Of a stretch of 32,000 nucleotides of DNA, positions 14,962 through 32,000 are shown piece by piece. The stretch comes from Patescibacteria group bacterium (lineage in GTDB: Bacteria > Patescibacteriota > Minisyncoccia > UBA6257 > HR35), in the NCBI GenBank assembly GCA_023480925.1, contig JAMCWY010000022.1, positions 2,986 through 34,985 of the forward strand, read 5' to 3'. Made by a program: the position numbers and the translations under genes. The number at the start of each line of letters is the position of its first letter. Positions within the stretch are counted from its first letter, which is position 1. The notes beneath the pieces were generated by a model, which ran no database searches, was not told the DNA's origin, and saw only the letters and a program-made list of their open reading frames with translations.

Positions 14962-15127
14962 CGATTAGACTAATTTCTTTAAAAACCAAATTATCAAACT
15001 TGCCTTTAAGATAAATATTGTCGCCCTTAAATTGGATCTTTAGTTCAAGTTTTGGATATCTTGATTTTATCTCCTCGACGCACCTTAAAATTCTTGGTTT
15101 AAAAAAAAATGGTTTTATTAAAGCCAT
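14912..15127 (-). CDS. Small hypothetical protein coupled to dnaN, 71 aa (speculative DUF721/DciA-like)
   Basis: The ATG overlaps the dnaN TAA stop (TAATG at 15125-15129). The 3' end overlaps the convergent PBP gene by 50 nt. No firm motif. Confidence 0.45.
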   Translation of the reverse strand: MALIKPFFFKPRILRCVEEIKSRYPKLELKIQFKGDNIYLKGKFDNLVFKEISLIVKNYFPESQIFSQLET

Positions 15128-16257: not shown

Positions 16258-16401
16258 TTATTATTTAATAATACTTTATTAATATAAATAATAATTATAG
16301 ACGCTGTGAATATGGGGATAATATTAAAACTATTTAAATGTTAGTTAAATTTATTTTTTAGTTTTTAAAACATCTATAAATCGGGTTGATAAGGTGTTTA
16401 A
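16258..16401. promoter_or_regulatory. Candidate oriC segment: AT-rich dnaA-dnaN spacer with DnaA-box-like 9-mers
   Basis: Against TGTGGATAA: tggggataa at 16313-16321 (1 mismatch), tgtgaatat at 16305-16313 (2 mismatches), ggttgataa at 16384-16392 (2 mismatches). These are flanked by nearly pure A/T runs (16261-16300, 16321-16370) that could act as a DUE. Confidence 0.45.
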
Positions 16402-17772: not shown

Positions 17773-17848
17773 GCTAAAATTTTATTACATTTTATTATAT
17801 AATATCAATAAGGTTAAAAATTAAAATAATCGATCGGATAAATTTAAA

Positions 17849-17965
17849 ATGACCAAAAAGAAAAGAAAAAGAAAGGTTGGTTTTCTGGTTCGATCAAGGA
17901 AAAAGAACGGTCGAAATATCTTAAAATCAAGGCGTCAAAAAAAGAGAAAAAAGATTAGTTCGTGA
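17849..17965 (+). CDS. rpmH: 50S ribosomal protein L34, 38 aa (short form)
   Basis: Not in the ORF track (<60 aa). Hand translation gives MTKKKRKRKVGFLVRSRKKNGRNILKSRRQKKRKKISS*, which matches the L34 pattern KRKR..GF..R....NGR..L..RR.KGRK.L. The TGA stop overlaps the rnpA ATG (TGATG). Canonical rpmH-rnpA-yidC order, divergent from dnaA. Confidence 0.8.
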   Translation: MTKKKRKRKVGFLVRSRKKNGRNILKSRRQKKRKKISS

Positions 17966-18291
17966 TGTTGGCGAGAAAATTTTGTCTCAGCCGCTCGGAC
18001 CGGCTTAAGTTTGATCGCGGCTCGGAATCAGATCGAGGTAATTTTTTTAAAATTTACAGCCGCGCCAATAGTTTAAACCACGCTCGCTTCGCCGTTCAAA
18101 TCAAAAAAAACCTAATTAAAAAATCAGTTGATCGGAATAAGCTCAAAAGAAAAATTAAACAAATTTTGGAATTAGGAATTAAAAAAAACACCATTACTTC
18201 AAACCGCGACTATCTTATTTTGGCGAAAAATAACCCGATCGGATTAAGTTTCAGCCAACTCAAAGAAATTTTTACCAATGAACTTTTTTAA
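17965..18291 (+). CDS. rnpA: Ribonuclease P protein component
   Basis: Basic ~108-aa protein with the RNR-like motif KKSVDRNKLKRKIKQIL. Located between rpmH and yidC. The ORF track starts at GTG 17962; the ATG at 17965 is preferred. Confidence 0.8.
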   Translation: MLARKFCLSRSDRLKFDRGSESDRGNFFKIYSRANSLNHARFAVQIKKNLIKKSVDRNKLKRKIKQILELGIKKNTITSNRDYLILAKNNPIGLSFSQLKEIFTNELF

Positions 18292-18925
18292 TCTGGTTTT
18301 AATCAACCCGCTCTTGAATTTACTTTTAAATATTTTTTCCTTGACTCATGATTTTGGTTGGGCGATAATTTTGACCACGGTTCTTTTAAAATTTTTTTTG
18401 CTGCCGTTCGCTTATTTGGCCCATCGCGAAGAAGGCCGAGTTAGGCAGGTCAGCCAAAGAGTCAACCGCGAAACAAAGGGAATAAAAGATATGATTGAAA
18501 AATCAAAAATCATTCAAAATGTTTACGCGGAAGAAAAATTTAATCCGATGAAAAATTTTGGCGTCCAAATAATCCAGCTGCCGATTTTTATCGGGTTTAT
18601 CGCCGCGCTCAACCGGGCGAAATTAATAATTGCCAATCCGTTTTTCCTTGGTCTGATCGATTTGCGTCTAGTTAATTTTTATTTGGCCCTGCTTGCTTTT
18701 TTGCTTCAATTTCTTCTGATTTTTAGCCAACCGGCCGAGGGTCGCAAAATTGCTTTTATTGTTTTGTTTTTTATTGGTTTGATTCTTTTCCGTCTGCCGG
18801 CGATATTCACCGTTTACTGGCTGGCCCTTTCAATTTTTATTCTCTTAGAGCGAAAAATTTTTCATTGGCATGAAGTAAAGTTTGCGGTCAAGCCGGTTAG
18901 TGAAAAAGAGGCCAGCCTGAGTTAG
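18278..18925 (+). CDS. yidC: YidC/Oxa1-family membrane protein insertase, short form, 215 aa
   Basis: NPLLNLLLNIFSLTHDFGWAIILTTVLLKFFLLPF matches the conserved first core helix of YidC. Further TM helices follow. Canonical position after rnpA (14-nt overlap). Confidence 0.8.
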   Translation: MNFFNLVLINPLLNLLLNIFSLTHDFGWAIILTTVLLKFFLLPFAYLAHREEGRVRQVSQRVNRETKGIKDMIEKSKIIQNVYAEEKFNPMKNFGVQIIQLPIFIGFIAALNRAKLIIANPFFLGLIDLRLVNFYLALLAFLLQFLLIFSQPAEGRKIAFIVLFFIGLILFRLPAIFTVYWLALSIFILLERKIFHWHEVKFAVKPVSEKEASLS

Positions 18926-19996
18926 CTGCGGCTTGAGGACATCATAATTACCGTTTAAATCAATGGTTTTTTCCTTATTGTCATTTGGGTTGTAAATAAA
19001 GATCTTGTCGGTAAAAGACTTTTTTAATTGAAGCCAGTTCTCGGGTAGGCCGGTTAGGTTTTGGTTGGTTGGGACGCCACAAACAAGATACTGCTCAAAC
19101 GAACACTTGGAGTCGGCGAAGGTGCCGAAGTTGAAAGCTTTTTGAATCTTGCCACCAAAATCAATTAGATTAGAGATCCAACTTGATTGGCTGAAATAAC
19201 TAATAAAAATTAAATTGGAATTTTTTTGGCCGATCGCGGTTAAGCCCGGTTCGGCTTGAAAAATTTCTTTAATTAGAGATTGACTGGGGTCATAGAGGAA
19301 CAGAGGCGAGGCCCGGCCAGTTTGAGGCTTGTCGTAAAAAATGACCTCTTGGCCGTCGGGACTAAAGAATTCAGGTTCAAGTAAGGAAAAGTTAAAAAGT
19401 TTTTTTTCAACGCCTTGGCGGTTAAGCTCGGCGATATAATTGATATTACCTTCATTGGAAACGTAATAAAGGGGAAGATTACCGATCCAGCCGGCCGCTC
19501 GGGTCAATAAATTGAGTTTAGTTAGGTTGTCGGCGGTGATATCCAAAACGAAGTAATGGTCAATGACGCCGCGGCTACTTTTGATTAGTAAGCTTTGTTT
19601 GTCCGGCGACAGACTTAGAAAACTAATATTGGGATCATCGTAAAGTTGCTGGAAGGTTTTATGTTCAAGATCAAAAGCGGTGACGGTTTTCGATTGATAA
19701 TCGTAGGCGTAAATTTTTGGATAGTCAATTTTGGCAAAACCAAGAGGTTCTTGAAAAACTGGTCCAATCGCGCCGACCGCCGGCGCGGTCGTGGCATTAA
19801 TTGTGTTTATTGGGGTTGATTTAAAGTTTGGCCCTAGTTCGTTGTTGGAAATCTTATAGACTTTTTGACCAGTGCCATTGATTTGATAAGATGTTTGAAT
19901 CGGCGGTTTTTTTATTATCTCTTCAACCATTAAAAAAGTAAAAGTGATCAAAATAATCGCGCCGAAGACAATAAAGACGTTCTTGATTTTTCTCAT
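18845..19996 (-). CDS. Membrane-anchored PD40/TolB-like beta-propeller repeat protein, 383 aa; last gene of the T4SS-like operon
   Basis: N-terminal anchor VFIVFGAIILITFTFLMV. PD40-like repeats LSLSPDKQSLLIKSS and FFSPDGQEVIFYDK. ATGA overlap with the upstream ORF at 19993-19996. The 3' end overlaps yidC by 81 nt. Confidence 0.6.
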   Translation of the reverse strand: MRKIKNVFIVFGAIILITFTFLMVEEIIKKPPIQTSYQINGTGQKVYKISNNELGPNFKSTPINTINATTAPAVGAIGPVFQEPLGFAKIDYPKIYAYDYQSKTVTAFDLEHKTFQQLYDDPNISFLSLSPDKQSLLIKSSRGVIDHYFVLDITADNLTKLNLLTRAAGWIGNLPLYYVSNEGNINYIAELNRQGVEKKLFNFSLLEPEFFSPDGQEVIFYDKPQTGRASPLFLYDPSQSLIKEIFQAEPGLTAIGQKNSNLIFISYFSQSSWISNLIDFGGKIQKAFNFGTFADSKCSFEQYLVCGVPTNQNLTGLPENWLQLKKSFTDKIFIYNPNDNKEKTIDLNGNYDVLKPQLTQAGLFFTNRLDRKLYFMPMKNFSL

Positions 19997-20325
19997 CGTT
20001 GTTTTGAATTATAAAAATAAATCGAGCCAAAAATAAGACCAATCACAACTAGGCCGACAATAAATTCAATTATAAGGTTAATAAAAATTTTTTTCCCGCC
20101 GACGCGGTTTTGATTTTGGTCGGGTTGACGGGAGGACGAAGAATTTTGATTGGCGGTTACGACTTGGCCCGAAGGCAGAAGCAGGGGTTTGATCGCGGCC
20201 GAGCTTGAGCCGGTTCGAGGCGTGGCCGGCTTGACTAAGTTTTGGCCAAAAGAAAATTTTACTGGGTTGGTCAAAACTAAGAAAATTATCAGGCCGACTA
20301 AAAATAAAAATTTATTTTTTGGCAT
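19993..20325 (-). CDS. Small secreted / C-terminally anchored protein, 110 aa
   Basis: N-terminal signal-like segment FLFLVGLIIFLVLTNPVKFSFGQ, S/Q/N-rich middle, C-terminal TM FIVGLVVIGLIFGSIYFY followed by a basic tail. Begins 9 nt after the preceding gene. Confidence 0.5.
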   Translation of the reverse strand: MPKNKFLFLVGLIIFLVLTNPVKFSFGQNLVKPATPRTGSSSAAIKPLLLPSGQVVTANQNSSSSRQPDQNQNRVGGKKIFINLIIEFIVGLVVIGLIFGSIYFYNSKQR

Positions 20326-20334
20326 TATTTTTTA

Positions 20335-21357
20335 CTAATTACAATTGTTCATTGTTTGGTCATAAGTTGAGTATGTCGTCACTACAACCGCGGCCGTGTT
20401 AATGGCGGCGTACTGTCTAAACGCGTCTTTGCCAACGCCAACATAAAGATCAATATGATTACCGTTAATGCCGCCACCTCGGTCTGTGCCGCAAAACACG
20501 CCGTATCTTTGGTTGTTTATATACATAACGACTTTTGAGGGTAACCACTCGGTTGGCACAGCCACAGTTTTGCCGGAGATAAGGACGTGGCCTTCGGCGT
20601 CAAGTGGTTGAGAAATTTCTTGAAAACTAGAGTTGATATAACGGCCTTGTTTGCCTTGACAAATAAGGCCGTTGCCTTGGTCGCAATAGCCGGTGCCTTG
20701 CATCTGGACGTCTGCTTTAAAAGAGTTTTCGCTTTGAGCCTGACTTTCGAGAGGAACATAATAACGGGTGACTTGAACTGGAATGCGTTGGCCGGTGTTT
20801 GGCGAACTAGCTTGGCCACTAGTAACAGGGGCGTTGGCGGCGAAACTGTTTTTGCCCGTGACAAATGTTTGACCGTCAACGGTAACGAAGCCGGGTATAT
20901 CGATATTTTGGACTCGGTAAAGAAGAAGATCGGCGTTAAAAATTTGAGGGTTGATCCAATAGAGAACCGAGCCGCTGAGAAAAATTACGATTAAACCAAA
21001 GACGGCGTTCTTGATTTTTTCCTTGCCGGCGGCCTTTAGGTTGACGGTTGAACTAAGCATGTATTCAAACGCGCCAACGATGACAAAGATAAAGGCGAGA
21101 GCGACAGCGATAACGGCGATCAGGTTGTAAACCGCTTGGAGGCAGCCCTGAAGACTAAAGGGATTATTGTTGGTTTGGTTTGAAATTGGGCATTCGGTTT
21201 GGAAATAACTGAACGGCGAAGCGAGATTGTTAAGGGGGGCGGCGAAAGAAATTATCGGTAAAGTCAAAATAAAAATTAAAACAAGGATCAAGTTAAGATT
21301 GCCCAGCCGGAATTTTTTATTAAAGTTTTTTCCCGAATAAAATTTTTTTAAACTCAT
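20335..21357 (-). CDS. Fusion protein: N-terminal T4SS-pilin-like TM hairpin plus C-terminal MltA/3D-domain (putative peptidoglycan lytic transglycosylase), 340 aa
   Basis: N-terminal part: signal/anchor, then LQAVYNLIAVIAVALAFIFVIVGAFEYMLSS..LKAAGKEKIKNAVFGLIVIFLSGSVLYWINP (helix-loop-helix as in Gram-positive/CPR T4SS pilins). C-terminal part: RYYVPLES...MQGTGYCDQGNG...GKTVAVPTEWLPSKVVMYINNQRYGVFCGTDRGGGINGNHIDLYVGVGKDAF. This aligns by eye to the 3D domain (GTVAVD...P.G..V.......DTGGAIKGN.ID.F). Confidence 0.7.
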   Translation of the reverse strand: MSLKKFYSGKNFNKKFRLGNLNLILVLIFILTLPIISFAAPLNNLASPFSYFQTECPISNQTNNNPFSLQGCLQAVYNLIAVIAVALAFIFVIVGAFEYMLSSTVNLKAAGKEKIKNAVFGLIVIFLSGSVLYWINPQIFNADLLLYRVQNIDIPGFVTVDGQTFVTGKNSFAANAPVTSGQASSPNTGQRIPVQVTRYYVPLESQAQSENSFKADVQMQGTGYCDQGNGLICQGKQGRYINSSFQEISQPLDAEGHVLISGKTVAVPTEWLPSKVVMYINNQRYGVFCGTDRGGGINGNHIDLYVGVGKDAFRQYAAINTAAVVVTTYSTYDQTMNNCN

Positions 21358-22007
21358 TAAATCGTTAATTTGGTCGAGGCGCTTTGGTTTGGTTGATTTT
21401 GATTTTGGATAATCAACTCAAGCTCGTTTTGAGCGCCTAAGCCCATATCGGGATTTAATTGGATTGACCAAGCGTTTGAAAAAATTCTGTTATTTTCTGC
21501 CCAGAAATAATCCAGCAAAGGCGAAGAAAAATTAAAAGCCAGGCCGGTTAAGTTGTCATTTGATTGAAGCTGACGCGCGGGCAGATAAAAGTTAGAGCCG
21601 GGTTCGAACTTAACGATCGTAACGCTTGGTTGGGGGACGTTAATGTCAATCGGTTCGGTTAAAGTTAATTTGAAATCTTTTGAGACAAGTTTGACCGCAC
21701 CAGTGATAACGCTAATATTGGCGTCGCCTAGGGGCAGCCTTAAAAATGGCAAAGTAGTTTGTTCACTGAGCGCGAGATTCGTTTGAGCATTCCAGGTGTA
21801 GTTAAAATCTTGGGCGGAGTAGATTCGGCCGCCTTGACTGATTTGAACCTCAGCTCCAAGAATAATCGAGTCGCCAACTTTTTTACTTGAGAGATAAAAA
21901 TAATTTTGGTTCGATTGGGCTTGGCTAAAATTAATATCAATAAGACCAAGAATGCAGATAAGTCCAAGCACCAAGACTAATTTTCGCGGGTTAAATTTTG
22001 AAATCAT
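21357..22007 (-). CDS. Secreted or N-terminally anchored beta-rich protein of unknown function, 216 aa
   Basis: The ORF track extends to 22190, but that extension overlaps the upstream gene. Met at 22007 starts a clean signal/anchor: MISKFNPRKLVLVLGLICILGLIDINFSQAQ. The stop overlaps the next ATG (TAATG at 21355-21359). Confidence 0.55.
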   Translation of the reverse strand: MISKFNPRKLVLVLGLICILGLIDINFSQAQSNQNYFYLSSKKVGDSIILGAEVQISQGGRIYSAQDFNYTWNAQTNLALSEQTTLPFLRLPLGDANISVITGAVKLVSKDFKLTLTEPIDINVPQPSVTIVKFEPGSNFYLPARQLQSNDNLTGLAFNFSSPLLDYFWAENNRIFSNAWSIQLNPDMGLGAQNELELIIQNQNQPNQSASTKLTI

Positions 22008-22038
22008 TTTTAATCGAGTTGTTTTTAATTTTTGATCT

Positions 22039-22587
22039 TTAATCATCGCTGATAGTCGGGCCGGCGATTTCTTGGCTTGGTCTAGAAATGACTTCGCCAT
22101 TATCCTGGCCGGTTGTTTCAAAATGAGAAGCGATTTTTGGCCAAAGAAAAAATAAAAATATAACACTGATCGTTTCAAGGGGGAGAACACTTACGATTGT
22201 GCCGATGATTGGCAATTCATCGGCGACAACCTCGCCGCCCGTGACGAGTCGGGTGATAATCGAAATATTCCGGCGGGCTCGATTAAGTTGGCTCTTGCCG
22301 CCGCTGAATTCGGGTCGGTAACTTAAATAAAGAAACAGGCCGAAATAAATTAAACGGAAAACTCCCAAGATTAATCTGATAATCCAGCCAACCAGACCTC
22401 CCGTGGGAATGTCAAGGATGTCGGCGATAATGTCGACTAAGTCAAGCCAAATCGCCAAACCCAAAAGAGAAAAAAGCAAAAAGTAAGTCGGGCCGCTTCG
22501 GCTGTCCCCCGGCTCGGCCTGGCTGGAATCGTTCAAGTCGGTTGGGCCGGTTATTTTTTGTGTTTCCGGTTCGGAAATTATTTCCAT
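22039..22587 (-). CDS. Integral membrane protein of unknown function, 182 aa
   Basis: Acidic/polar N-terminus, then about 3-4 TM segments (YFLLFSLLGLAIWLDLV, LVGWIIRLILGVFRLIYFGLFLYL, IIGTIVSVLPLETISVIFLFFLW). Its ATG lies 1 nt after the VirB4 stop. Confidence 0.55.
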   Translation of the reverse strand: MEIISEPETQKITGPTDLNDSSQAEPGDSRSGPTYFLLFSLLGLAIWLDLVDIIADILDIPTGGLVGWIIRLILGVFRLIYFGLFLYLSYRPEFSGGKSQLNRARRNISIITRLVTGGEVVADELPIIGTIVSVLPLETISVIFLFFLWPKIASHFETTGQDNGEVISRPSQEIAGPTISDD

Positions 22588-22588
22588 T

Positions 22589-24409
22589 TTATAAGCCTTT
22601 GTCCGCCGCGGCTTTTTTTAGAGCCATTAATTGTTCTAAGTCGGAACGAATAATCTGATCTTCGGCGTATGAACCGAGGATGTAAATCGGGACGCGCTTA
22701 AGGCCGGCGACGATAATGCCGCGGCCGCGTTCGGCCTGAAGGAGAAAATTTTTTTCGCCCTCAGATAAAGCGAAAACTTGGCCAATTAGGTCGATCGTCG
22801 CCGGCGATTGTTTCATCAAAAAAACCAGGGCCGAGTTGGTAATAATCGGTTTGCCGAAAGACGAGCTAAGAAAGTCCTCGACGTCTTGAGTAATATTGGT
22901 GACGCCCAGAAGATATTTTCGGCCGCGCTTAATCACGTTCAAAAGAAACTCGCCGCCGGCTTTTTGTTTCATAATCCACCAGGCTTCATCGATGATGATG
23001 ACCCGTCGCCGGACGTCGCGTCGGGCTCGATTCATAATAAAAGAAAGAGTCAGGTACATGCCGATTGGCCGAAGTTGTTCGACCAGATCGCGAAAGCCAA
23101 AAACAATCAAGCGCCGGTCCAGCTCAACGTTGGTGGGTTTGTTGATAAAACCGGAGAAGTTGCCTTGGGTGTAAGGATAAATTCGGTCGGCTATTTTTTC
23201 GCCGCCCTCGACGTTCCGGAGTATTTTTTCGAAGTCGTCGAGAGTCGGGAAGATATCGATTTTACTAATGTCGCTTTCGGGCAAAATATTAAACGAGGCG
23301 TAGGTTTGGGTTAGGGCCCGATCGATAATCGTCAGCTCTTCTGAATCGAGATCTTTTTCTGTGATGATTTGGATCAAACCAACCAGATCGGAAATTTTTT
23401 CTTTAAAGACTCCAACCGGATCTTCATCCGCCAAAGGCAAAGAAAGATCGAATGGGTTGATGTGAAGATCGGATTTGAGCGAGACGGGGATAAAGCTGCC
23501 GGCGTAAATTTCAGCGATTGAACGGTACTCGTCTTCAGGATCGAGAATAATCGTGTCGGTGCCAAGGACCAGATTTCGCATTACTTCAAGTTTGGCCATG
23601 TAAGATTTGCCCGAACCCGATCGGGCAAAAACAACCATGTGAGCGTTTTCAAAAGCGAAGCGGTCAAAAATAACCAGGCTGCTGTCTTGGAGATTGATGC
23701 CGAATAAAACACCTTGTTCCATTGAGAGTTCGGAGGAGATGAAAGGGAAAAAAGAAGAAGCGGGAGATGAGTTGAGTTGATAGCGGAGACTAATCTCGTC
23801 TAAGCCGAGCGGCGTGGTCGAGATAAACCCGGATTCTTGTTGAAAAAGAACAGTCTTGGGCAGTATCAGAGCGCTTTCAAGGATTTTTATCACTTGTTTT
23901 TCTTTAATGACAAGATCGTCTTTAGTCTCGGCTAAAATCGTTAAATAAAGGCCAACCTCGAACATTTTCTCGCGCGCCTGGATCAGGGCGTCTCGAAGCG
24001 ATTCGATGTCTTGGTAAGCGGTTTCGAGTTCGGGCGAGCGAACTAACCCACGCTCGACTCTTTCTTGAATTTGACCTTCGACTCGGGCAAGTTGTTTTTC
24101 GAATCTTTTCAAGAGCGCCGGTGTTTCTAAGGGGAAGAAAAAAAGAGAAAGATTAAAGGCTTCTTCAAGGGAAATAATGTTTTCAAGCCAACCAGCCAAA
24201 AGATAGCGAGGATAAGTCAAGATAAAAATCGTTTTGCCGAAAATGTCGCCGATTTGAAAATCGGAAAGATTAAAAATCGCGCCTGCCGGCGAAATTATTT
24301 CTTTAATATTCTCAAAGCCGGATGATTCTTTGACCGTTGGAATGACCAAGACTGGCTTATTCGGCTCGACCGCGCTTTTAAATTTCGGCAACTTTAAATT
24401 TAGCTTCAT
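22589..24409 (-). CDS. virB4: VirB4/TraC/TrbE-family type IV secretion ATPase (middle and C-terminal ATPase domains), 606 aa
   Basis: Walker A VVFARSGSGKSYM. Walker B RVIIIDEAWWIM (the DEAW form typical of VirB4). GVTNITQDVEDF. N-proximal ISPAGAIFNLSDFQIGDIFGKTIFILTYPRYLLAGWLENII, as in Gram-positive VirB4 homologs. Confidence 0.85.
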   Translation of the reverse strand: MKLNLKLPKFKSAVEPNKPVLVIPTVKESSGFENIKEIISPAGAIFNLSDFQIGDIFGKTIFILTYPRYLLAGWLENIISLEEAFNLSLFFFPLETPALLKRFEKQLARVEGQIQERVERGLVRSPELETAYQDIESLRDALIQAREKMFEVGLYLTILAETKDDLVIKEKQVIKILESALILPKTVLFQQESGFISTTPLGLDEISLRYQLNSSPASSFFPFISSELSMEQGVLFGINLQDSSLVIFDRFAFENAHMVVFARSGSGKSYMAKLEVMRNLVLGTDTIILDPEDEYRSIAEIYAGSFIPVSLKSDLHINPFDLSLPLADEDPVGVFKEKISDLVGLIQIITEKDLDSEELTIIDRALTQTYASFNILPESDISKIDIFPTLDDFEKILRNVEGGEKIADRIYPYTQGNFSGFINKPTNVELDRRLIVFGFRDLVEQLRPIGMYLTLSFIMNRARRDVRRRVIIIDEAWWIMKQKAGGEFLLNVIKRGRKYLLGVTNITQDVEDFLSSSFGKPIITNSALVFLMKQSPATIDLIGQVFALSEGEKNFLLQAERGRGIIVAGLKRVPIYILGSYAEDQIIRSDLEQLMALKKAAADKGL

Positions 24410-25038
24410 TTATAATTTAACGTTGTCTGGCTTAATTGTTCAAAAAGTTGGATCGGCGCCAAACCCCAACGCAGGCTTGGGTTGTATGTTTCGAAAAGCA
24501 GTTGAATCAGCTCCGAAGTTTGAAGACGGATCGGCTGAAGACCAATGATGGAAAGTTTTTCGGAAAGGTAAACGATTCTGGTTTCAAGTTGTTCGAGTTT
24601 TTCTTCGTAGCGCTCTTCTTTGCTCGAATCGTTTTTGCGCAACTTGCTCATGTCTAAATTTGACTCGTAGGGGACGACCAGATAAAACATTTTTTTCATA
24701 ATTTTGTGGTTTTCGATATAACCGGCGAGAAATTCGATGTACTCTTGGAGTTGAAGCCGGATCAGCGGTTCTTTTTCGTTTTCCAAAACCGACTTAAGGT
24801 AGTTGAGATAATTTTCAATATTAGCCAAGCGCGAGACGGTTAAAATTTGAAGGGGAAAGTCAATGCCGTTTAGAAGATTTTTAAACTGGTCAATCACCAA
24901 CTCTTTTTCTTTCTCGGCTAAGAGATAAAAATTTATTCCGGGCACCATTAAAACCGCCCGGAGACTACCGTTCGTTAAGATCATCGTATCGTCGCGAACA
25001 TCCGCGACTTTAATCAAATTAAATGTCGGTTTTACCAT
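24406..25038 (-). CDS. VirB4 N-terminal-domain-like protein, 210 aa (separate ORF coupled to the ATPase by an ATGA overlap)
   Basis: IKVADVRDDTMILTNGSLRAVLMVPGINFYLLAEKEKELVIDQFKNLLNGIDFPLQILTVSR...KKMFYLVVPYES resembles the extreme N-terminal segment of ~800-aa Gram-positive VirB4 proteins. The two ORFs sum to 816 aa. Its TGA overlaps the ATG of the 606-aa ORF. Confidence 0.6.
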   Translation of the reverse strand: MVKPTFNLIKVADVRDDTMILTNGSLRAVLMVPGINFYLLAEKEKELVIDQFKNLLNGIDFPLQILTVSRLANIENYLNYLKSVLENEKEPLIRLQLQEYIEFLAGYIENHKIMKKMFYLVVPYESNLDMSKLRKNDSSKEERYEEKLEQLETRIVYLSEKLSIIGLQPIRLQTSELIQLLFETYNPSLRWGLAPIQLFEQLSQTTLNYK

Positions 25039-25676
25039 CGTCTTTTTGGAAATTTTGGTAAAGGAAAATTTTTATATGGATTATAGTTATTTAGGGTTGG
25101 TTGGAGCTTTTTGACGACACTAATCAGGGGCTGGTTATTTATTCGGGTTTGGACCGGCGTCGCCGGTGCTGGCGGTTGAATTTTTATTTCTGGCTTCGGC
25201 GCGATTTGTTTTTCCGGGCCAAGCCATGGCGTTTCTTTGATTGTCGGAATCGGTTCGGCCGAGCTGATGGGCGGCGGCGGTGTTTTTGGTTTTCTAATTA
25301 ATAATTGTTCCGTTGTCTCGATCTGTTTTTCTCCTGTGGGCGGTTCTTTTAAATATTTTTCCAATTCAGGCAACTCAATCGTTTTATTGACAATCTTGGT
25401 CATCGATTGCCAGACATATTTTCGGTTTGAACCAAAGAAGTAAAAAAGCGAAGGTAGCGACGATAGGACCGGTTTGCCGTTAAGATTAATGAAGCCCAGG
25501 GCGACAGCCAGACCAAACGAGATTATAACGATTATGAGTTCGATTAAACCGCCGACAACTTTGCTGCCGATATAACTGATAATAAAGGCGGCCAAAAATA
25601 AAAAGAGTTGTTTAAACGTGACTAAGCCCATTAGCTTGTCTTCGACGCCGATGTATTGAGGAACGCTCGATCTCAT
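25032..25676 (-). CDS. PrgI-family / VirB3-like two-TM protein with a Pro-rich C-terminal extension, 214 aa
   Basis: SVPQYIGVEDKLMGLVTFKQLFLFLAAFIISYIG followed by a second TM matches the PrgI-family N-terminal pattern (vP..i..eDKl.G.lt.rQ). It lies immediately upstream of VirB4, as VirB3/PrgI genes usually do. 7-nt overlap with the next ORF. Confidence 0.55.
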   Translation of the reverse strand: MRSSVPQYIGVEDKLMGLVTFKQLFLFLAAFIISYIGSKVVGGLIELIIVIISFGLAVALGFINLNGKPVLSSLPSLFYFFGSNRKYVWQSMTKIVNKTIELPELEKYLKEPPTGEKQIETTEQLLIRKPKTPPPPISSAEPIPTIKETPWLGPEKQIAPKPEIKIQPPAPATPVQTRINNQPLISVVKKLQPTLNNYNPYKNFPLPKFPKRRW

Positions 25677-25688
25677 TTTTAAATCTAA

Positions 25689-26555
25689 TTATAAATTAGA
25701 AAGATCGATCACGGCGCGATCTTTTTTTCCCGGTTCGGCCTTTTTAATGATGATTTTGGGGCCAAGATTGGATGAGTCTGACGATTGGTTTGGGCTTGGC
25801 GCGTTGGCTGGTTGGGTTGAACTTGGTTGGTTCGTCGGCCATTTAATCTCCTTAACGTTGACAAAGGTTGAATTTGAATCAGGCCGGTCGGCGTCTTTTA
25901 ATTTAAGGTTAGTTGGTTCGGCCGGAATTTCCAAAATATTTTTTCCCAAAGGGTTAAAATTTTGATCCGCGCTCATCGGTTTCGGCGTCGCGCTCGTCGT
26001 CATCGGCTGGCTTTCTATTTTGATTGGTTCGGGTGGCTTGGCGATTGGTTCGGCCGGCGCTTGAAATGGTTCGCTTCCGTCGTCAAGAGAAGTTTGCTTT
26101 GGCGCCGCGGCGACAACTCGGTTTTGGTTTAAATTCGGCGCGGCGCGATTAAGATTAATCACGGGAGAGTTCATTCTGGGCGTTTCTTGTTTCTTAATTT
26201 CGTCCAAGAGGGCTTGAATGTCGCTTTGTTTTTCCGCTTCGACTTGTTCGTTCCAGCTTTCCCACCTTTTTTTAATTAAAGGCAAAAAGCGGCTGAAAAT
26301 AAAATGGCCGAGTCCGGATGCTTGCTCTTGATCGAAATTTAATCTTGATTTTATTTCAGCCACGATCGTGTTAATCGAGTCCGCCTCAATCGCTTTGACC
26401 GCGATGTCTCGGAGAAGAAAATCCAAAGCGATCTCGTTTTCTTCCAACTCAAACTTTTTCGCGTACTCGTCCAAGAAAGAAAAATAATTTTCCGAGTTGA
26501 GAAAATTCTTTATGCTTTCCGGCGCCTGGTTGTATTTTTCAAAAAAGTTTAACAT
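25689..26555 (-). CDS. Hypothetical protein with no TM segment: helical N-terminal domain plus Pro/Ser-rich disordered C-terminus, 288 aa
   Basis: Long ORF in the operon frame context. No recognisable motif. Low-complexity segment EPFQAPAEPIAKPPEPIKIESQP... Confidence 0.5.
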   Translation of the reverse strand: MLNFFEKYNQAPESIKNFLNSENYFSFLDEYAKKFELEENEIALDFLLRDIAVKAIEADSINTIVAEIKSRLNFDQEQASGLGHFIFSRFLPLIKKRWESWNEQVEAEKQSDIQALLDEIKKQETPRMNSPVINLNRAAPNLNQNRVVAAAPKQTSLDDGSEPFQAPAEPIAKPPEPIKIESQPMTTSATPKPMSADQNFNPLGKNILEIPAEPTNLKLKDADRPDSNSTFVNVKEIKWPTNQPSSTQPANAPSPNQSSDSSNLGPKIIIKKAEPGKKDRAVIDLSNL

Positions 26556-26578
26556 TAAAATAATTATGGGTTTAGCGG

Positions 26579-28678
26579 TTAATCTCTAAAATTAAGACCC
26601 AAACCATTGAGCGAATACGGATTTCCACTATTATCTTTGACGTTTCCGATAATTGAATCAATGTGATTGGCTAATTCGTCGCGCGTGTTTTTGTCAGTTA
26701 TATTTTTTCGAATTTCTTCGACAATGTCTTGGTTATTCTGGATCGCCGCCAGAGAATTAAGGGCGGCCGAGGCTTTATTTTGACTTTTCTGGTTACCCTG
26801 TTCAATTAAGGCAATGGTCGCGGCTAATGTTTCTCCCGATGTTCCTTTAGCGGTCATCAAAGCGTTTAACTCGGGCGTTGCGACAAACCCGCGGTTGAAG
26901 AAACGGTCGTCGGTGAATCCAAGATTCTTGGCTATATTAAAGTGATCAAGGCGGCTGCCGAACTCCATTTTTTGGTTAGCCGGCATTTTCAGCCATGCGT
27001 CTGAGAGGATCTGGTTCGTACTTGTTCCCTTTGGTCCGCCCCACCCAGCGGTTTCGCTGGTTTGGCTTACGATTGGTTCAAGTTGATCCCAGCCGCCGGC
27101 GGAAGAGATGTTAATTTTGGCCAAAGCCGCGATCATGCTTTCTTTGTCCGGAGAGTTAAAGCCTCGCCATTTTTTCGCCAAAACCGCTCTAAGTTTTTCA
27201 TCTTTAAGGCTATCTTTGATGCCGGGTATGCCCGAGATATTTCTAACCCAATCTTCCGTGTCCCAATCAATGTCGGTGGATTGGAGAAAATTTTTGAGCA
27301 CGCCGTAATTTTTGTCTTGAATTAAACTTGACATTGTTTCTTTAACCTTATCCGGGTTACCGCTGGTTTTTTCAACCAGAGCCTTACCCCGTATCTCTTC
27401 GCGTTCTTTTTTCGGTTTAAGTAACGATTCGGAAAGACTTTCAAGTTGTTTGGAAAACTTGGCCGTGCCGGCGATACCGGACGCGCCCATAGTCGTACTC
27501 CAATCTTTTAATTTAGAACCCATTTTTTCTCGGACTGGCGACATTGCCTTTTGGCTTGTCCATTTGATTCCGCCACCGATAACGTTGGCCCAAACTGTTC
27601 GAGCGGCGGTCATGCCGCCACCGGCGAACTTACCCGCCCAATCAATAGCGAAAATGATGGCGAAGCCGTAGTAAATAGCAATAAAGATAAAACGAAAAAC
27701 GGTCATTAAAATATATGGGCCAATGGCAAAGCTCGAACCGAGTAAGCCGCCGTTGACGCCGCTGCCGGCGCCTTGTTGGGCCGGCGCGACAAACGTGTTG
27801 TAAAAATCGCCTGTGGCTCCGCCAACACCGTTGGCGGAGCCGGTTGTGATCGGTTGGGTAAAGGCGGTTGAGATAAGACTGAAACCAACCAGAATCATTA
27901 ATAATAGTATCGCTGGCAGAGCCGACCATTTTAAGAAAGATTGAATTGTTTGGTTCAGATGGTTGCTGTTTTTCCCGAACGCGGTTGAGACGATCGCGAG
28001 TGGCAGGAATCCAACCAAAAGAGCAATAAAGATAAATCGACCGACAAAAATGCCGGCGAAGATAAACATAAAAGCGGTCCAAAGAAAAGAAAGAGCCAAA
28101 CCGGCCAACTCAAAAGCAAGGTCGGGTACAACCCGCAATGTTTGGTTGGAAATATTGGCTGCGACACCTTGGGTCGCCTGTTCGGTTAACTGGCTGGGTG
28201 AGAAGTGAGAAAGGCTGGCAAAAATGGCTGTGCCGACATAATGGCAGTTATTAACGTCACTGCTGTTGGCGGGAGTGAAGAGACAGGCAAGCGAGTAGGT
28301 GATTGAGTTGAAGATATTAAATATTTCTTCGGCGAAAAAGAAAGAGAAGTTGATTAAGAGCGCGATTAAAATTAAGACAAAAATTTTCTTGCGCGCTTCT
28401 TCGCCGTGGTTAATAATAAAAAGAATGCCGATATAGAGGCTGGCGAAAATAATGCCGAGATAGGCAATGTTTTTAAAAATTTTCCAAACCTGGGACGCGA
28501 AGTTTAGATCGGAAAAAGGATTGGCAACAGCAAAGGCATTGATCAAAAGCGCGGCCAGCCGGCCCAATATTTGGAAGAGAAAAGTGGTGATAGTATTCAA
28601 AATACCCAGAAACCAGATCAAGATTCCACCATACGTGTTGACGTTTATATTAAACAGATAAGATATAAATGAATCCAT
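26579..28678 (-). CDS. VirB6/TrbL-like polytopic membrane protein with a ~300-aa hydrophilic C-terminal domain, 699 aa
   Basis: About 8 hydrophobic segments in the first ~370 aa, with a Gly-rich loop (SANGVGGATGDFYN...GAGSGVNGG), then a soluble domain. The architecture and operon position resemble Gram-positive VirB6 analogs. The assignment rests on architecture only. Confidence 0.55.
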   Translation of the reverse strand: MDSFISYLFNINVNTYGGILIWFLGILNTITTFLFQILGRLAALLINAFAVANPFSDLNFASQVWKIFKNIAYLGIIFASLYIGILFIINHGEEARKKIFVLILIALLINFSFFFAEEIFNIFNSITYSLACLFTPANSSDVNNCHYVGTAIFASLSHFSPSQLTEQATQGVAANISNQTLRVVPDLAFELAGLALSFLWTAFMFIFAGIFVGRFIFIALLVGFLPLAIVSTAFGKNSNHLNQTIQSFLKWSALPAILLLMILVGFSLISTAFTQPITTGSANGVGGATGDFYNTFVAPAQQGAGSGVNGGLLGSSFAIGPYILMTVFRFIFIAIYYGFAIIFAIDWAGKFAGGGMTAARTVWANVIGGGIKWTSQKAMSPVREKMGSKLKDWSTTMGASGIAGTAKFSKQLESLSESLLKPKKEREEIRGKALVEKTSGNPDKVKETMSSLIQDKNYGVLKNFLQSTDIDWDTEDWVRNISGIPGIKDSLKDEKLRAVLAKKWRGFNSPDKESMIAALAKINISSAGGWDQLEPIVSQTSETAGWGGPKGTSTNQILSDAWLKMPANQKMEFGSRLDHFNIAKNLGFTDDRFFNRGFVATPELNALMTAKGTSGETLAATIALIEQGNQKSQNKASAALNSLAAIQNNQDIVEEIRKNITDKNTRDELANHIDSIIGNVKDNSGNPYSLNGLGLNFRD

Positions 28679-28680
28679 GA

Positions 28681-31600
28681 TTAAATTTGAATTTTATTTG
28701 GACTGAATAAATTAAAAATATTCGCGACCAACCCGCCGGCTAACTTAAACGGCAGTTCAACCAAACCAAGAAGATGATCAAGAAATCCGCGGCCAGCGAT
28801 TGTCGTTTGATTTTTACTCCCATTGATATTAACCGCGACCGGTGGGCTGGTGGTAAAATCGTGAATTTCAGTGTTTAAGAACATAATGGCGCTTCTCAGG
28901 CTTGGGTCGCTTACTTTCGTTTCAAGATCATTTAGGCTTTTTTCAAGTGCTTGAATTTGCTGATTGATGTTGTCTAAATTAAAGTTGGTTTGGTCAATGT
29001 GGAGGTTGGTCAAGTCTTGAGTGATTTGATCTAAAATTTGATTCCTTTGCGTTTGAAGTTGGTTTTCGAGATCAGTGATTCGAGTTTGAAGGTGATTAAT
29101 CTCAGTCAATATCGGTGACAGGTTTGAGTTTTGACCATTGAACTGATCATTGAGAGCGGTCATGAGGTTGTTGGCGTTCTGGTTGATGTTAATCAGGGCG
29201 TTAAGAAGGCTGCCGAGGTCGACTTGGATATTGGTGTTGTTAACATTTTCTCCAATAACAACATTTAGAAGATTGTTGTCGGTCGCGACCTGTTTGAGAT
29301 TTTGATAAACCGAAATTTTTTCGGCGTAATAATTTTGCAGGGGCGCGATCCAGCTCGTGTCGGTCGCTTGGCCGGAAAGAAGTTTTTGAGTGTAGCTGAT
29401 CAAACCGCTGATAACGCTGTTCTCGTTAATCTTATATTTTGGTTGAGCCAAATCTTGGTTGGCCAAAAGAATGAGGTCATATTTAAATCGGCCCTGGTCA
29501 AAATTAGACCAATGCGAAGGACCATATGGATTTGTATACCACTGACGGTAGCGGCCAACGCCATTAAGATCCTGCAAACCTTCAAGTTGGATCAGGCTAA
29601 GGGAGTGAAGGCAATCAACCGCGTTTGTGGTCAAAGTACCGGAGTAAAAAGCGCTTAAATTAACATAATTTGGCGTTTGGGAACAAGTTGATGGGACTGG
29701 GTCGGCGACAAGAAATGGCGTTGGGACATTATTAAGGTTGGCCCACCTAAAGCCGCCTTCTTGGCTGAACAGCATTTGAATTTTTGACTGATAAAGAGAA
29801 TCACTCAAGTTGTTAAGAGGCGTAGTCACGGCGGTTTGAAAATTTTGAATGCTGTTCATATCAGTTTGAAGTTGTTGGCTTAAAGTGACGATCTCGGTCG
29901 CCGTGGCCGAACTGTTTAAAGCGTTCAACTGACTGATCAAGTTGGTAATGTCCGGATTATTAAATAGGCCGGCGAGCTGACTCGAGAGGTCGGCGCGTGT
30001 GGCGCTGGCCGTGTCAAGCTCGGCCTGAAAATTTTGAAGCTGATCGTTTTCGCTTAAAACATTCGTTTTATAATTTAACCAAGTTTGACTGGTTTGGTTT
30101 GAATAGGAGTCAAGCATATTACTTGAACTACTGACGACTGCTTGGAGACTGGTTAGTTGTGTTTGAATTAGACTGATTAAATCAATGGTCGAAGTTGAAT
30201 TAAGTTGGCCAATCGAGGCGGCGATCGAAGTGGCGAGATTGGTTGCTTCGGCTTGAGCCAATTTTGTCATTTCAATCTTTTGGTTGTTTAGTTCCGAAAC
30301 GCAGGCTTTGTTGCTGATCTGGCCGGTACCGCTGCCACCGCCGCTGAGCTGGCTCATGCCGTTGCAAGCTTGAGCGATGTTGCTGGTCGTGTAAGAGCCG
30401 GCGAGTTCGTTGCTTGGATTGGTTGAATGATTGATCGCGCCCTGGAGGTCGGCTAAGCCGTTGTTGATCAAGCCAAAAAGTCTTGAACGCAAGAAGGAAG
30501 TTAGATAACTGGAAAGAAAATTGAGCGAATCTTTAAACGTCGGCAGTTGTTGAACCTGAGCGAGCATTGCGGTTTGAGCGATTTTTTTTAAATCGCCGGA
30601 GGAAAAAGAAGACTGACAATTAACGCCGTTGGCGCAATTTTTGATCGTGGCGTAGCCGTTGTTGATATCGGTCTGAGTTTGGTTGGTTTGAACCGACGCT
30701 TGATTAAGGATCGAACTGTCCAGGGCGAAAAGTTGGGGCGCGGTTTCAACGTAAGTGTTGGCCGAGTTAAGGCCGACGTCGATGATTTGACTGTTCGCAC
30801 GCTGGACGTCGCTGAATGGATTAGAGGTTTGAGTGGGCTGAGACGAGTTTAGGAGTTGGGCTTCGCTTGTTCGTCTGAGCGACTGATCGGCGTTGGCGAA
30901 ATAAGGAATTTTATCTAAGAAGCCAACTAGGCTCGGCCTTCTATTTTGACTTAGTTGGTTTGGACTAACTGTTTGACTTATGACTAAAGGACATGTTCTT
31001 GATTGAAGATTATTTAAAATATTATCCGCGGCCTGGCTAAAGCCGGGAAAATTTCTTAAAAAAGAATTACTGTTCACCGCTTGGTTGAGATTATTTTCAA
31101 AAGTGTCGCGGGCGCCGGCGATAATGCCGACGATCGCGTTTTTGACCGACGGGTAAGCGAGCGAAGGAATACAGTTGGTGTTGTTAATATAATTATTAAC
31201 GCCGCCAATCGCGCCAAGCGATTGCATGACTTGATTGTAGGCAACTGGGTTTTTGATAAAAAACTGGCCGGTTTTTTGGAGCATAGCGTTGGTGGCGACA
31301 TTAAGGACGCGATCAAGAAAATAAGCTTGAGCGTCTTTGATCATTTGTTTCAGCTGAGCTTTGAGGTTTTCACCGACGCCACGGATCGATTCTTGGATTG
31401 ATTGACCAATCGCCTTTTTCGCGCCTGCGTCGGAAGTCGGAACTTCGTTAAACAACCCCGAGAGAAAATTTCCAATCAACTCGCTCGTAAAACCCTGGAC
31501 AATATTGCCGAGATCGAAACCCGAGCCGCTTGATTCGATTGGATAAAGCGGCGGAACCGAACCAGACGGGTTGGGTTGAGTTGAACTCGGACTCGAACCC

Positions 31601-31713
31601 GAGTTGTAGTCGATGTTGTTAAAAGTCGTGTTATCCGCGCGGCTAAAATAAAAAGGTAGAGCCGAGGCTAAAATAACTAAAATTAAAAATAAACGGGTTG
31701 ATTTTTTTTTCAT
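28681..31713 (-). CDS. Large secreted N/Q/S/T-rich protein with C-terminal coiled coil and hydrophobic C-terminus, 1010 aa (candidate surface/contact component)
   Basis: Signal peptide MKKKSTRLFLILVILASALPFYFSRADN. Long helical Q/N/S/T-rich stretches. Coiled-coil-like LTEINHLQTRITDLENQLQTQRNQILDQITQDLTNL...QIQALEKSLNDLETKV. C-terminal LLGLVELPFKLAGGLVANIFNLF. ATGA overlap with the upstream ORF. Confidence 0.6.
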   Translation of the reverse strand: MKKKSTRLFLILVILASALPFYFSRADNTTFNNIDYNSGSSPSSTQPNPSGSVPPLYPIESSGSGFDLGNIVQGFTSELIGNFLSGLFNEVPTSDAGAKKAIGQSIQESIRGVGENLKAQLKQMIKDAQAYFLDRVLNVATNAMLQKTGQFFIKNPVAYNQVMQSLGAIGGVNNYINNTNCIPSLAYPSVKNAIVGIIAGARDTFENNLNQAVNSNSFLRNFPGFSQAADNILNNLQSRTCPLVISQTVSPNQLSQNRRPSLVGFLDKIPYFANADQSLRRTSEAQLLNSSQPTQTSNPFSDVQRANSQIIDVGLNSANTYVETAPQLFALDSSILNQASVQTNQTQTDINNGYATIKNCANGVNCQSSFSSGDLKKIAQTAMLAQVQQLPTFKDSLNFLSSYLTSFLRSRLFGLINNGLADLQGAINHSTNPSNELAGSYTTSNIAQACNGMSQLSGGGSGTGQISNKACVSELNNQKIEMTKLAQAEATNLATSIAASIGQLNSTSTIDLISLIQTQLTSLQAVVSSSSNMLDSYSNQTSQTWLNYKTNVLSENDQLQNFQAELDTASATRADLSSQLAGLFNNPDITNLISQLNALNSSATATEIVTLSQQLQTDMNSIQNFQTAVTTPLNNLSDSLYQSKIQMLFSQEGGFRWANLNNVPTPFLVADPVPSTCSQTPNYVNLSAFYSGTLTTNAVDCLHSLSLIQLEGLQDLNGVGRYRQWYTNPYGPSHWSNFDQGRFKYDLILLANQDLAQPKYKINENSVISGLISYTQKLLSGQATDTSWIAPLQNYYAEKISVYQNLKQVATDNNLLNVVIGENVNNTNIQVDLGSLLNALININQNANNLMTALNDQFNGQNSNLSPILTEINHLQTRITDLENQLQTQRNQILDQITQDLTNLHIDQTNFNLDNINQQIQALEKSLNDLETKVSDPSLRSAIMFLNTEIHDFTTSPPVAVNINGSKNQTTIAGRGFLDHLLGLVELPFKLAGGLVANIFNLFSPNKIQI

Positions 31714-32000
31714 TGATTAAGCATGGTTAAAACTTTGTCTTGACTTTGATTAAGATTATTAAGAATGCTTAGGAGAATTAATTTTTTTTGAGAATCGGGA
31801 TTTTGGCTAAGTTGGTTGAAAATATAAGCGCGGCTAGTTAAATTAAATATCCAAAAAATTTGAAATTTATAAAAATTAGGCGGCGGCTGGATTCGACCAA
31901 ACGCCTTCGCCGTTTCGAGATAAATTGAACTGTTAGTTTGGAGACTTTGGTTGTTGTTTAGATCAATCTTAATTTTAGTTAAATTGGAATTACCTTGAAG
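31710..32000 (-). CDS. 3' end (96 codons) of a further upstream operon gene, unknown function; the 5' end lies beyond the window
   Basis: Not in the ORF track. Hand translation of the minus strand from 32000 is open: LQGNSNLTKIKIDLNNNQSLQTNSSIYLETAKAFGRIQPPPNFYKFQIFWIFNLTSRAYIFNQLSQNPDSQKKLILLSILNNLNQSQDKVLTMLNQ*. The TGA stop overlaps the ATG of the 1010-aa gene (ATGA). Confidence 0.5.
   Translation of the reverse strand, partial: LQGNSNLTKIKIDLNNNQSLQTNSSIYLETAKAFGRIQPPPNFYKFQIFWIFNLTSRAYIFNQLSQNPDSQKKLILLSILNNLNQSQDKVLTMLNQ

Follow-up and report, generated by a model that had tools for sequence, protein, structure and literature searches.

What does the long run of same-strand genes do that fills the last 13 kilobases (kb) of a 32,000-nucleotide (nt) stretch of DNA from a Patescibacteria group bacterium (contig JAMCWY010000022.1 of assembly GCA_023480925.1, positions 2,986 to 34,985; the window hereafter), with dnaA and dnaN close by? 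A first reading, made from the letters of this DNA alone (the sequence-only reading), took the genes for a minimal, Gram-positive-style type IV secretion system (T4SS) centred on the ATPase VirB4, located on the chromosome beside the origin and not a conjugative element. The analysis described here leads to a similar view: the cluster very probably encodes a relaxase-less T4SS that derives from the conjugation machinery of the monoderm MPF-FATA class and moves macromolecules between an episymbiont and its host cell. By family score and by the taxa of its homologues the VirB4 groups with the Patescibacteria, and judged from its sequence the locus is an ordinary member of an already described Patescibacteria T4SS. 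The earlier interpretation was right but rediscovers published work, because the system is described in two papers (PMC12102498; PMC10633639).

What do these papers say? VirB4 occurs in 2,417 of 3,035 Patescibacteria genomes, and 2,425 VirB4 proteins form one clade that is nested in the MPF-FATA class; TrsD, PrgI/VirB3, VirB6 and VirB2-like pilins are encoded close to virB4, hardly any relaxases occur and coupling proteins are seldom next to it, and in Paceibacteria and Microgenomatia the T4SS locus adjoins dnaA, dnaN, rnpA and rpmH (Quinonero-Coronel et al., 2025; PMC12102498). Transposon sequencing (Tn-seq) in Southlakia epibionticum found the T4SS cluster, including its pilins, to be essential for epibiotic growth and comEC to be dispensable (Wang et al., 2023; PMC10633639). 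In a 2025 review the Patescibacteria systems figure as the latest additions to the T4SS superfamily (PMC12857230). Literature searches to mid-2026 brought up no paper in which the substrate or the structure is established. The sequence-only reading remarked that such gene sets had been noted in surveys without an established function; the system is better known than that, given a dedicated comparative paper (PMC12102498) and the essentiality seen by Tn-seq (PMC10633639).

Gene order and T4SS-type components

How closely are the genes joined? Recomputed from the window sequence, twelve successive open reading frames (ORFs) run on the minus strand from 32000 to 18845, and every junction that had been listed for this coupled series came out exact. 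In the order of transcription they are the following (aa, amino acids; TM, transmembrane segments; HMM, hidden Markov model; the basis of each description in brackets):

31710..32000, minus strand: C-terminal 96 codons of the first gene, called U, for a predicted secreted protein (iterated HMM)
28681..31713, minus strand: 1010-aa protein with N-terminal signal or anchor, mostly helical or coiled-coil (one N-terminal hydrophobic segment)
26579..28678, minus strand: 699-aa polytopic protein with about 6-7 TM and a soluble C-terminal domain of about 340 aa (TM prediction)
25689..26555, minus strand: 288-aa protein without TM, with a conserved N-terminal domain of about 95 aa and a proline-rich tail (family HMM)
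25032..25676, minus strand: 214-aa PrgI/VirB3-like protein, two-TM hairpin with proline-rich tail (orthology, TM prediction)
24406..25038, minus strand: 210-aa TrsD, the detached N-terminal domain of VirB4 (NCBIfam, colinearity with fused VirB4)
22589..24409, minus strand: 606-aa VirB4 ATPase, middle and C-terminal P-loop part (NF045971, P-loop_TraG)
22039..22587, minus strand: 182-aa membrane protein with 3 TM (TM prediction, slot family)
21357..22007, minus strand: 216-aa bitopic protein, N-terminal TM and all-beta ectodomain (profile search)
20335..21357, minus strand: 340-aa protein with signal peptide, VirB2-like pilin hairpin and C-terminal 3D domain (T4SS_pilin, 3D)
19993..20325, minus strand: 110-aa protein with signal peptide and C-terminal TM anchor (alignment with relatives)
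18845..19996, minus strand: 383-aa protein, N-terminal TM anchor and TolB-like beta-propeller ectodomain, last gene of the operon

Eleven ORFs lie wholly inside the window and are intact; the first, within which the window ends, is partial but free of internal stops. Adjoining ORFs overlap in ATGA at 31710-31713, 24406-24409 and 19993-19996, by 7 nt at 25032-25038 and by 1 nt in a TAATG at 21357, and are otherwise separated by 2 nt (28679-28680), 1 nt (22588) or 9, 12 and 23 nt. A gap of 31 nt precedes the start of the 216-aa protein, for which an alternative ATG at 22046 would give 229 aa and an 8-nt overlap with the preceding stop. Promoter-like sites inside the cluster are about as frequent as in shuffled sequence (24 against 22.0), and so are terminator-like sites (25 against 22.1). 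Hydrophobicity analysis predicts all non-ATPase members except the 288-aa protein to be membrane-anchored or secreted. The operon is one tightly packed unit of five T4SS-type components and seven further proteins, six of the latter being predicted to be membrane-anchored or secreted. For comparison 80 related loci were fetched from a GTDB scan with one genome per species, and the genes of the 81 loci were mapped by iterated HMM searches. Since the same gene order recurs in dozens of genomes, the cluster is more than a product of chance.

What would drive the machine? The 606-aa protein, proposed by the sequence-only reading as VirB4, reaches 339.3 bits with NF045971, the VirB4-like CD1110 family, and thus exceeds the curated cut-off of 325, with a match that covers model positions 186-734 only. 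P-loop_TraG is matched at E 1.4e-21, and the Walker A (ARSGSGKSY) and Walker B (DEAWW) motifs are invariant across 12 diverse homologues. The adjoining 210-aa protein had been left unassigned. In NCBIfam it matches TrsD/TraD (E 5e-7) and positions 105-278 of VirB4_plasma (E 1e-12), its orthologues carry the TraC-like PF26593, and the 210-aa and 606-aa proteins are colinear with residues 7-206 and 213-787 of a fused VirB4 of about 790 aa. On these matches the 606-aa protein is a VirB4 ATPase that is split, with the 210-aa gene encoding its N-terminal domain. Most loci have the split form; a fused TrsD-VirB4 of about 770-790 aa is found in four related loci:

L012:746-3106, fused TrsD-VirB4
L018:788-3160, fused TrsD-VirB4
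L077:9335-11707, fused TrsD-VirB4
L080:9356-11665, fused TrsD-VirB4

In L018, L077 and L080, moreover, the pilin is bare or the set of downstream genes is smaller. The 120 best homologues of the window VirB4 are 58-100% identical to it, and all those that carry a taxon name, most of them carrying none, are from Patescibacteria, in agreement with the earlier assignment of the genome; relatives occur in at least 595 GTDB species genomes. The family matches support the Gram-positive-style, VirB4-centred nature that had been attributed to the set.

Could VirB4 instead be the motor of a DNA-import machine like archaeal Ced, which would pull in host DNA as a source of nucleotides? The protein has a weak match to CedB (E 9e-13), Patescibacteria are unable to make nucleotides, the T4SS of S. 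epibionticum is essential while comEC-dependent transformation is not (PMC10633639), and import of DNA or other macromolecules is the function favoured by the authors of PMC12102498. However, the cut-off for CedB is 700 bits and the match reaches 47.6, compared with 339 for CD1110, so that VirB4 is not a Ced orthologue (CedD gives 24.5 bits against 600). Moreover, no CedA-like proteins were recognised, and the 12 proteins yielded no domain for DNA binding or nuclease activity. Archaeal Ced resembles the window locus in using a VirB4-related ATPase without relaxase and in that import, not export, is the role proposed, but the CedB score of the window protein is far below threshold, CedA-type proteins were not found, and the membrane and surface components are different. 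As an explanation of the locus a Ced-like DNA importer is thus unlikely. Ced-type import fails as a family assignment and is possible as a function, and it would then be a sub-case of the T4SS for macromolecules that we prefer, not an alternative that excludes it.

Which proteins could connect such a motor to the membrane? The 214-aa protein falls short of the PrgI cut-off (14.8 bits against 27; E 0.043), but 39 of its 40 positional orthologues match PrgI, the best with E 3e-11, and by orthology it is PrgI/VirB3. The 699-aa protein itself has no Pfam match, and a PDB profile search gave no match to VirB6; its family is present in 50 loci, and five of 33 members match TrbL/VirB6 (best E 1.9e-7). 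Because the protein has no match of its own and the five orthologues provide the connection, the label VirB6-like is transitive, and an extended VirB6-like protein is a reasonable assignment. Both components had been named from the letters alone, and both names rest on orthologues, nearly all of them for VirB3 and only these five for VirB6, and not on the window proteins' own scores.

The fusion of a pilin-like hairpin with a 3D lytic domain, also noticed at first reading, is found in the 340-aa protein with both matches above cut-off (T4SS_pilin, 33.8 bits against 26.6; 3D, 29.7 against 23.8). T4SS_pilin is matched by 45 of 51 orthologues, and the pilin family occurs in 69 of the 81 loci, where the hairpins usually carry a C-terminal extension that is a recognisable cell-wall hydrolase in a minority. 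The type of hydrolase on orthologous pilins varies (NlpC/P60, M23, VanY, SLT; 3D in the window), and as a C-terminal region with 3D of the window type is present only in the two nearest loci, the pilin-hydrolase fusion does not represent one general domain. The 3D domain, which is lytic transglycosylase-like, is a predicted functional analogue of VirB1-type cell-wall hydrolases and not a homologue of VirB1/SLT or CHAP.

Is the system mainly a pilus or adhesion organelle, in which VirB4 powers a VirB2-like filament for attachment to the host and no substrate is transported? Such a role would fit the VirB2-like pilin that is encoded here and in most of the related loci, the essentiality of the pilins in S. 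epibionticum (PMC10633639) and the lack of a coupling protein nearby. It fits less well that some 200 aa at the C-terminus of the pilin, the 3D domain among them, are globular and that the hairpin in relatives bears other enzymes or long extensions, all of which would be hard to pack into a filament of the VirB2 type, and that the window already encodes type IV pili, which are adhesive in cultivated Saccharibacteria (PMC12206443). We therefore regard a mainly adhesive organelle as rather improbable.

A conserved place beside dnaA

Is the cluster bound to its place on the chromosome? Downstream of the operon the translations identify:

15127-16257, minus strand: dnaN
16402-17772, minus strand: dnaA
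17849-17965, plus strand: rpmH
17962-18291, plus strand: rnpA
18278-18925, plus strand: yidC

The intergenic regions around dnaA are short (144 nt, 16258-16401; 76 nt, 17773-17848), GC skew changes its sign at about 16-18 kb of the window, and the window has 8 consensus DnaA boxes where 5.6 are expected, which is not above chance. Across the 81 loci the recurrent order is U, big protein, VirB6, the family of the 288-aa protein, VirB3, TrsD, VirB4, small TM protein, the family of the 216-aa protein, pilin and the family of the 383-aa protein; yidC and rnpA come next, on the opposite strand, and after them dnaA and dnaN. This order, ending at yidC-rnpA-rpmH-dnaA-dnaN, is found in about 50 of the 81 loci, from related Parcubacteria/Paceibacteria, and most of the 81 keep the identifiable families in order. 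Housekeeping neighbours of the operon are present in 50-58 of 81 loci (with Pfam labels in L001 and L082-L084). Without exception dnaA is downstream of virB4 and shares its strand (50 of 50 loci), whereas yidC is on the other strand (53 of 53). A 634-kb contig and the closest relatives, with 75-77% identity in VirB4, contain the same twelve genes, and there the flank upstream of the first gene consists of DivIC, UPF0102 and leucyl-tRNA synthetase (LeuRS). The synteny comparison that the sequence-only reading had proposed thus gives the same gene order again and again. Median identity to the window proteins is 46% for VirB4, 41% for DnaA and 27% each for DnaN and YidC, and VirB4 identity correlates with DnaA identity (Spearman 0.64, Pearson 0.88) to an extent comparable to that between DnaA and DnaN. 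Since the position is conserved and VirB4 divergence tracks DnaA, vertical inheritance under strong constraint is indicated and not a mobile element.

The 13-kb operon runs towards dnaA/oriC at every locus examined. GC skew puts it on the lagging strand, head-on to replication, which is unusual for a long, conserved and presumably well-expressed operon. The 383-aa gene on the minus strand and yidC on the plus strand converge, and their 3' ends overlap by 81 nt (window 18845-18925); the overlap is similar in L001, L082 and L084 (36-144 nt) and is found in 12 of 51 loci overall.

Could the cluster nevertheless be an integrative conjugative element (ICE), or the remnant of one, that moves DNA between cells and has its relaxase, coupling protein and integrase just outside the window? 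This idea draws on the placing of VirB4 in the CD1110 family, whose members are conjugal-transfer ATPases of Gram-positive ICEs, on a component set like that of monoderm conjugation systems (PMC12102498) and on the fact that the window stops within the first gene. Among the window ORFs scanned, however, none encodes a relaxase, coupling protein, VirB11, outer-membrane core or integrase, and the repeat search of the window returned only short chance matches instead of flanking repeats, all as the sequence-only reading had it. The window contains no transfer RNA (tRNA) genes and no match to Rfam, and the 10-kb flanks of L001 and L082-L084 contain no relaxase, coupling protein or integrase. What follows beyond the first gene in the closest relatives and in the 634-kb contig are DivIC, UPF0102 and LeuRS, so that the mobility genes that could have turned up just beyond the window are not met there. 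In addition, the site beside dnaA is identical in about 50 species-level genomes, DnaA divergence is mirrored by VirB4 divergence, att-type repeats are lacking like the tRNA genes, and 109 relaxase homologues in 3,035 Patescibacteria genomes include only 15 near virB4 (PMC12102498). A conjugative element is very unlikely because of the fixed chromosomal position and the lack of mobility genes, which agrees with the chromosomal, origin-adjacent nature that had been claimed for the locus.

Two PilB-like T2SSE ATPases were considered as VirB11 and rejected on account of their size (557-568 aa), their MshEN domains, their distance of 6-17 kb and their position near a prepilin gene. They are part of the type IV pilus genes of the window (879-2585, minus strand; 4097-4645, plus strand; 11127-12800, minus strand), which encode, besides these two ATPases of the PilB/GspE type (T2SSE and MshEN; 568 and 557 aa), a prepilin that has a methylation motif at its N-terminus. 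Two ORFs near the pilus genes have no family match (235 aa, 2582-3289; 215 aa, 7351-7998).

Accessory proteins of the cluster

What do the seven further proteins add? The U family is found by iterated HMM searches in 35 loci, always at the start of the cluster. Its members have 218-350 aa in relatives and 227-231 aa in the closest ones, where DivIC and then an intergenic gap of about 220-290 nt precede the gene, and 12 of 31 aligned members contain bacterial TSP3 calcium-binding repeats. For the 1010-aa protein, which is probably a fast-evolving surface protein, only sub-threshold matches to coiled-coil-type families were obtained, relatives number only 7 among 1.84 billion representative proteins, and an AlphaFold2 (AF2) model from the single sequence has a pLDDT (predicted local distance difference test) of 35 and no usable fold. 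No relationship could be established (hhalign, 26% and 19.5%) to the proteins that take its place in 27 other loci. These form another, well-conserved family of about 500 aa without known domain, characterised by motifs of which some contain cysteine (CSPF, CTL, GGW, GFLS, TPG) and including one member with a peptidoglycan-binding domain. Example members (alignment A11) are:

L014:2941-4362, family of about 500 aa in the slot of the 1010-aa protein
L066:3768-5222, same family

Two further proteins belong to conserved families for which Pfam and PDB searches found no relative. The 288-aa protein matches (E 7e-11; hhalign 95%) the family in the slot between VirB6 and VirB3, to which 43 proteins of related loci belong. 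Many members of this family end in DPYRE after a long proline-rich tail, a motif that the window protein lacks. Members (alignment A8) are for example:

L064:7651-8727, family of the 288-aa protein
L026:7854-8819, same family

The 182-aa protein joins a multi-TM family that occupies the slot between VirB4 and the 216-aa protein in 38 loci (hmmsearch E 2.4e-4; hhalign 94%), and its orthologue in L001 matches the HMM of this slot family at E 9e-12.

The 216-aa family is present in 70 of the 81 loci. While a search with the single sequence returns only the protein itself, a profile search returns 20 proteins; the AF2 model that resulted is poor (pLDDT 55) but all beta. A profile of the family matches Ig-like (immunoglobulin-like) domains in the PDB (Hoc at E 9.6e-5, PKD, IgG constant domains), BiPBP_C and PKD matches occur among the orthologues, and Foldseek with the model returned only non-significant Ig-like neighbours. 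The ectodomain is thus probably Ig-like. The TolB-like fold of the 383-aa protein comes from a family present in 61 loci: a profile of 28 orthologues matches TolB structures in the PDB with E 1e-7 to 7e-7, and the DPP4 propeller is matched at about 1e-4. Of the six members said to have no assignable function, the 216-aa protein can accordingly be given a probable fold. Profile searches of the PDB with the VirB6-like, 288-aa, 182-aa, first-gene and big-slot families brought no significant match. A VirB8-like component with NTF2-like fold left no signal in the two bitopic candidates, the 216-aa and 383-aa proteins, for which the sole structural model is of low confidence.

The 110-aa protein has no family match, and alignment identifies it as the shortened form of a protein of 210-214 aa, from which a central cysteine-rich domain of about 110 aa is missing. 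The domain (CNE..C...CP.DCP) is present in the longer counterparts:

L082:14225-14866, counterpart with central domain
L084:14177-14806, counterpart with central domain
L001:14071-14706, counterpart with central domain

Could the whole cluster, then, be the decaying and non-functional remains of something acquired long ago? The lost central domain of the 110-aa protein and the very fast evolution of the 1010-aa protein could be taken in this way. Yet the ORFs are intact, the catalytic motifs of VirB4 are invariant, VirB4 is more conserved than DnaA and the family order is kept in most loci, and we give a remnant almost no credence.

It could also be imagined that the Paceibacteria-type system is architecturally new above the membrane, namely a host-docking, wall-spanning structure that takes macromolecules from the host and in which pilins with swappable enzymatic ectodomains form no classical filament. 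This is a tentative and rather doubtful idea. It starts from six conserved partners for which described T4SSs would offer no counterpart: the first gene with TSP3 repeats, the 288-aa and multi-TM 182-aa families, the Ig-like and TolB-like proteins and the hyper-variable giant helical protein.

Relation to known systems and proposed mode of action

How does the locus compare with systems already described? With the Paceibacteria type of the Patescibacteria-clade T4SS (PMC12102498) it shares the split TrsD and VirB4, PrgI/VirB3, a VirB6-like protein, a VirB2-like pilin and a monoderm-type VirB4, the lack of a nearby relaxase or coupling protein and the position beside dnaA, dnaN, rnpA and rpmH; nothing essential is different. 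What goes beyond the main text of PMC12102498 are the TolB-like and Ig-like proteins, the first gene with TSP3 repeats and the two conserved families, as well as the fusion of pilin and 3D domain, the varied hydrolases on the pilins and the invariant transcription towards dnaA. These details of accessory proteins are minor and leave the classification unchanged.

The only relative that was tested experimentally is the T4SS of S. epibionticum ML1 (SEML1_0006-0019; PMC10633639). Like the window cluster it is chromosomal and Gram-positive-like, has pilins and contains no recognisable relaxase or coupling protein, and its locus-tag numbers are low. This member of the Saccharimonadia has six separate pilin genes and a peptidase and a lysozyme downstream of virB4, whereas the window has one pilin, which is fused to a 3D domain, and other accessory proteins. 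Monoderm MPF-FATA systems (Trs of pGO1/pSK41, Prg/Pcf of pCF10, CD1110 of CTn2) share with the window a VirB4 of the CD1110 family, PrgI/VirB3, a polytopic VirB6-like protein, a cell-wall hydrolase and the lack of an outer-membrane core, and a separate TrsD gene is found in pGO1 as well. Unlike them, the window locus is without relaxase, coupling protein and oriT context, occupies a fixed chromosomal position instead of a plasmid or ICE, shows neither a PrgB-type adhesin nor a recognisable VirB8-like (PrgL/TraM) protein, and includes a VirB2-like pilin, which they lack.

How could the parts act together? The components and the arrangement are observed here; that they assemble into one machine, what this would carry and in which direction are inferred. 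TrsD and VirB4 would form a hexameric ATPase motor that docks on VirB3 and VirB6 in the cytoplasmic membrane, where the PrgI/VirB3 and VirB6-like proteins would serve as motor anchor and membrane channel. The pilin-3D protein could open the peptidoglycan locally and may polymerise into, or cap, a short pilus-like conduit. The part that spans the wall and contacts the host would be built from four proteins: the large, variable helical one, the one with TSP3 repeats, and the anchored Ig-like and TolB-like propeller proteins. The cargo would be proteins or other macromolecules that pass between episymbiont and host, rather than the bacterium's own DNA in conjugation.

Several points weigh against this proposal. 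No VirB8-like component was found in the cluster, and the window candidates for VirB3 and VirB6 are below the family thresholds on their own scores. A coupling protein could be encoded elsewhere in this genome, of which about 35 kb are covered; VirD4 homologues are present in most Patescibacteria genomes, far from virB4 (PMC12102498). Essentiality was shown only in a Saccharimonadia strain, the cluster of which is composed differently (PMC10633639). The seven accessory proteins may be parts of the machine or merely envelope proteins that are co-transcribed with it, and neither substrate nor effector nor direction of transport can be read from the DNA letters.

What, then, does the locus mean for the biology of these bacteria? 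It introduces no new principle and provides a cleaner parts list for the Paceibacteria-type cluster; that the Patescibacteria T4SS is recoverable by reading the sequence alone is a further outcome. The conserved accessory families could guide structural and genetic work once a member of the Paceibacteria can be manipulated. Among T4SSs, that of the Patescibacteria was the first demonstrated to be essential for growth of its own bacterium, and its substrate and direction of transport bear on the life of a very large branch of ultra-small, host-dependent bacteria.

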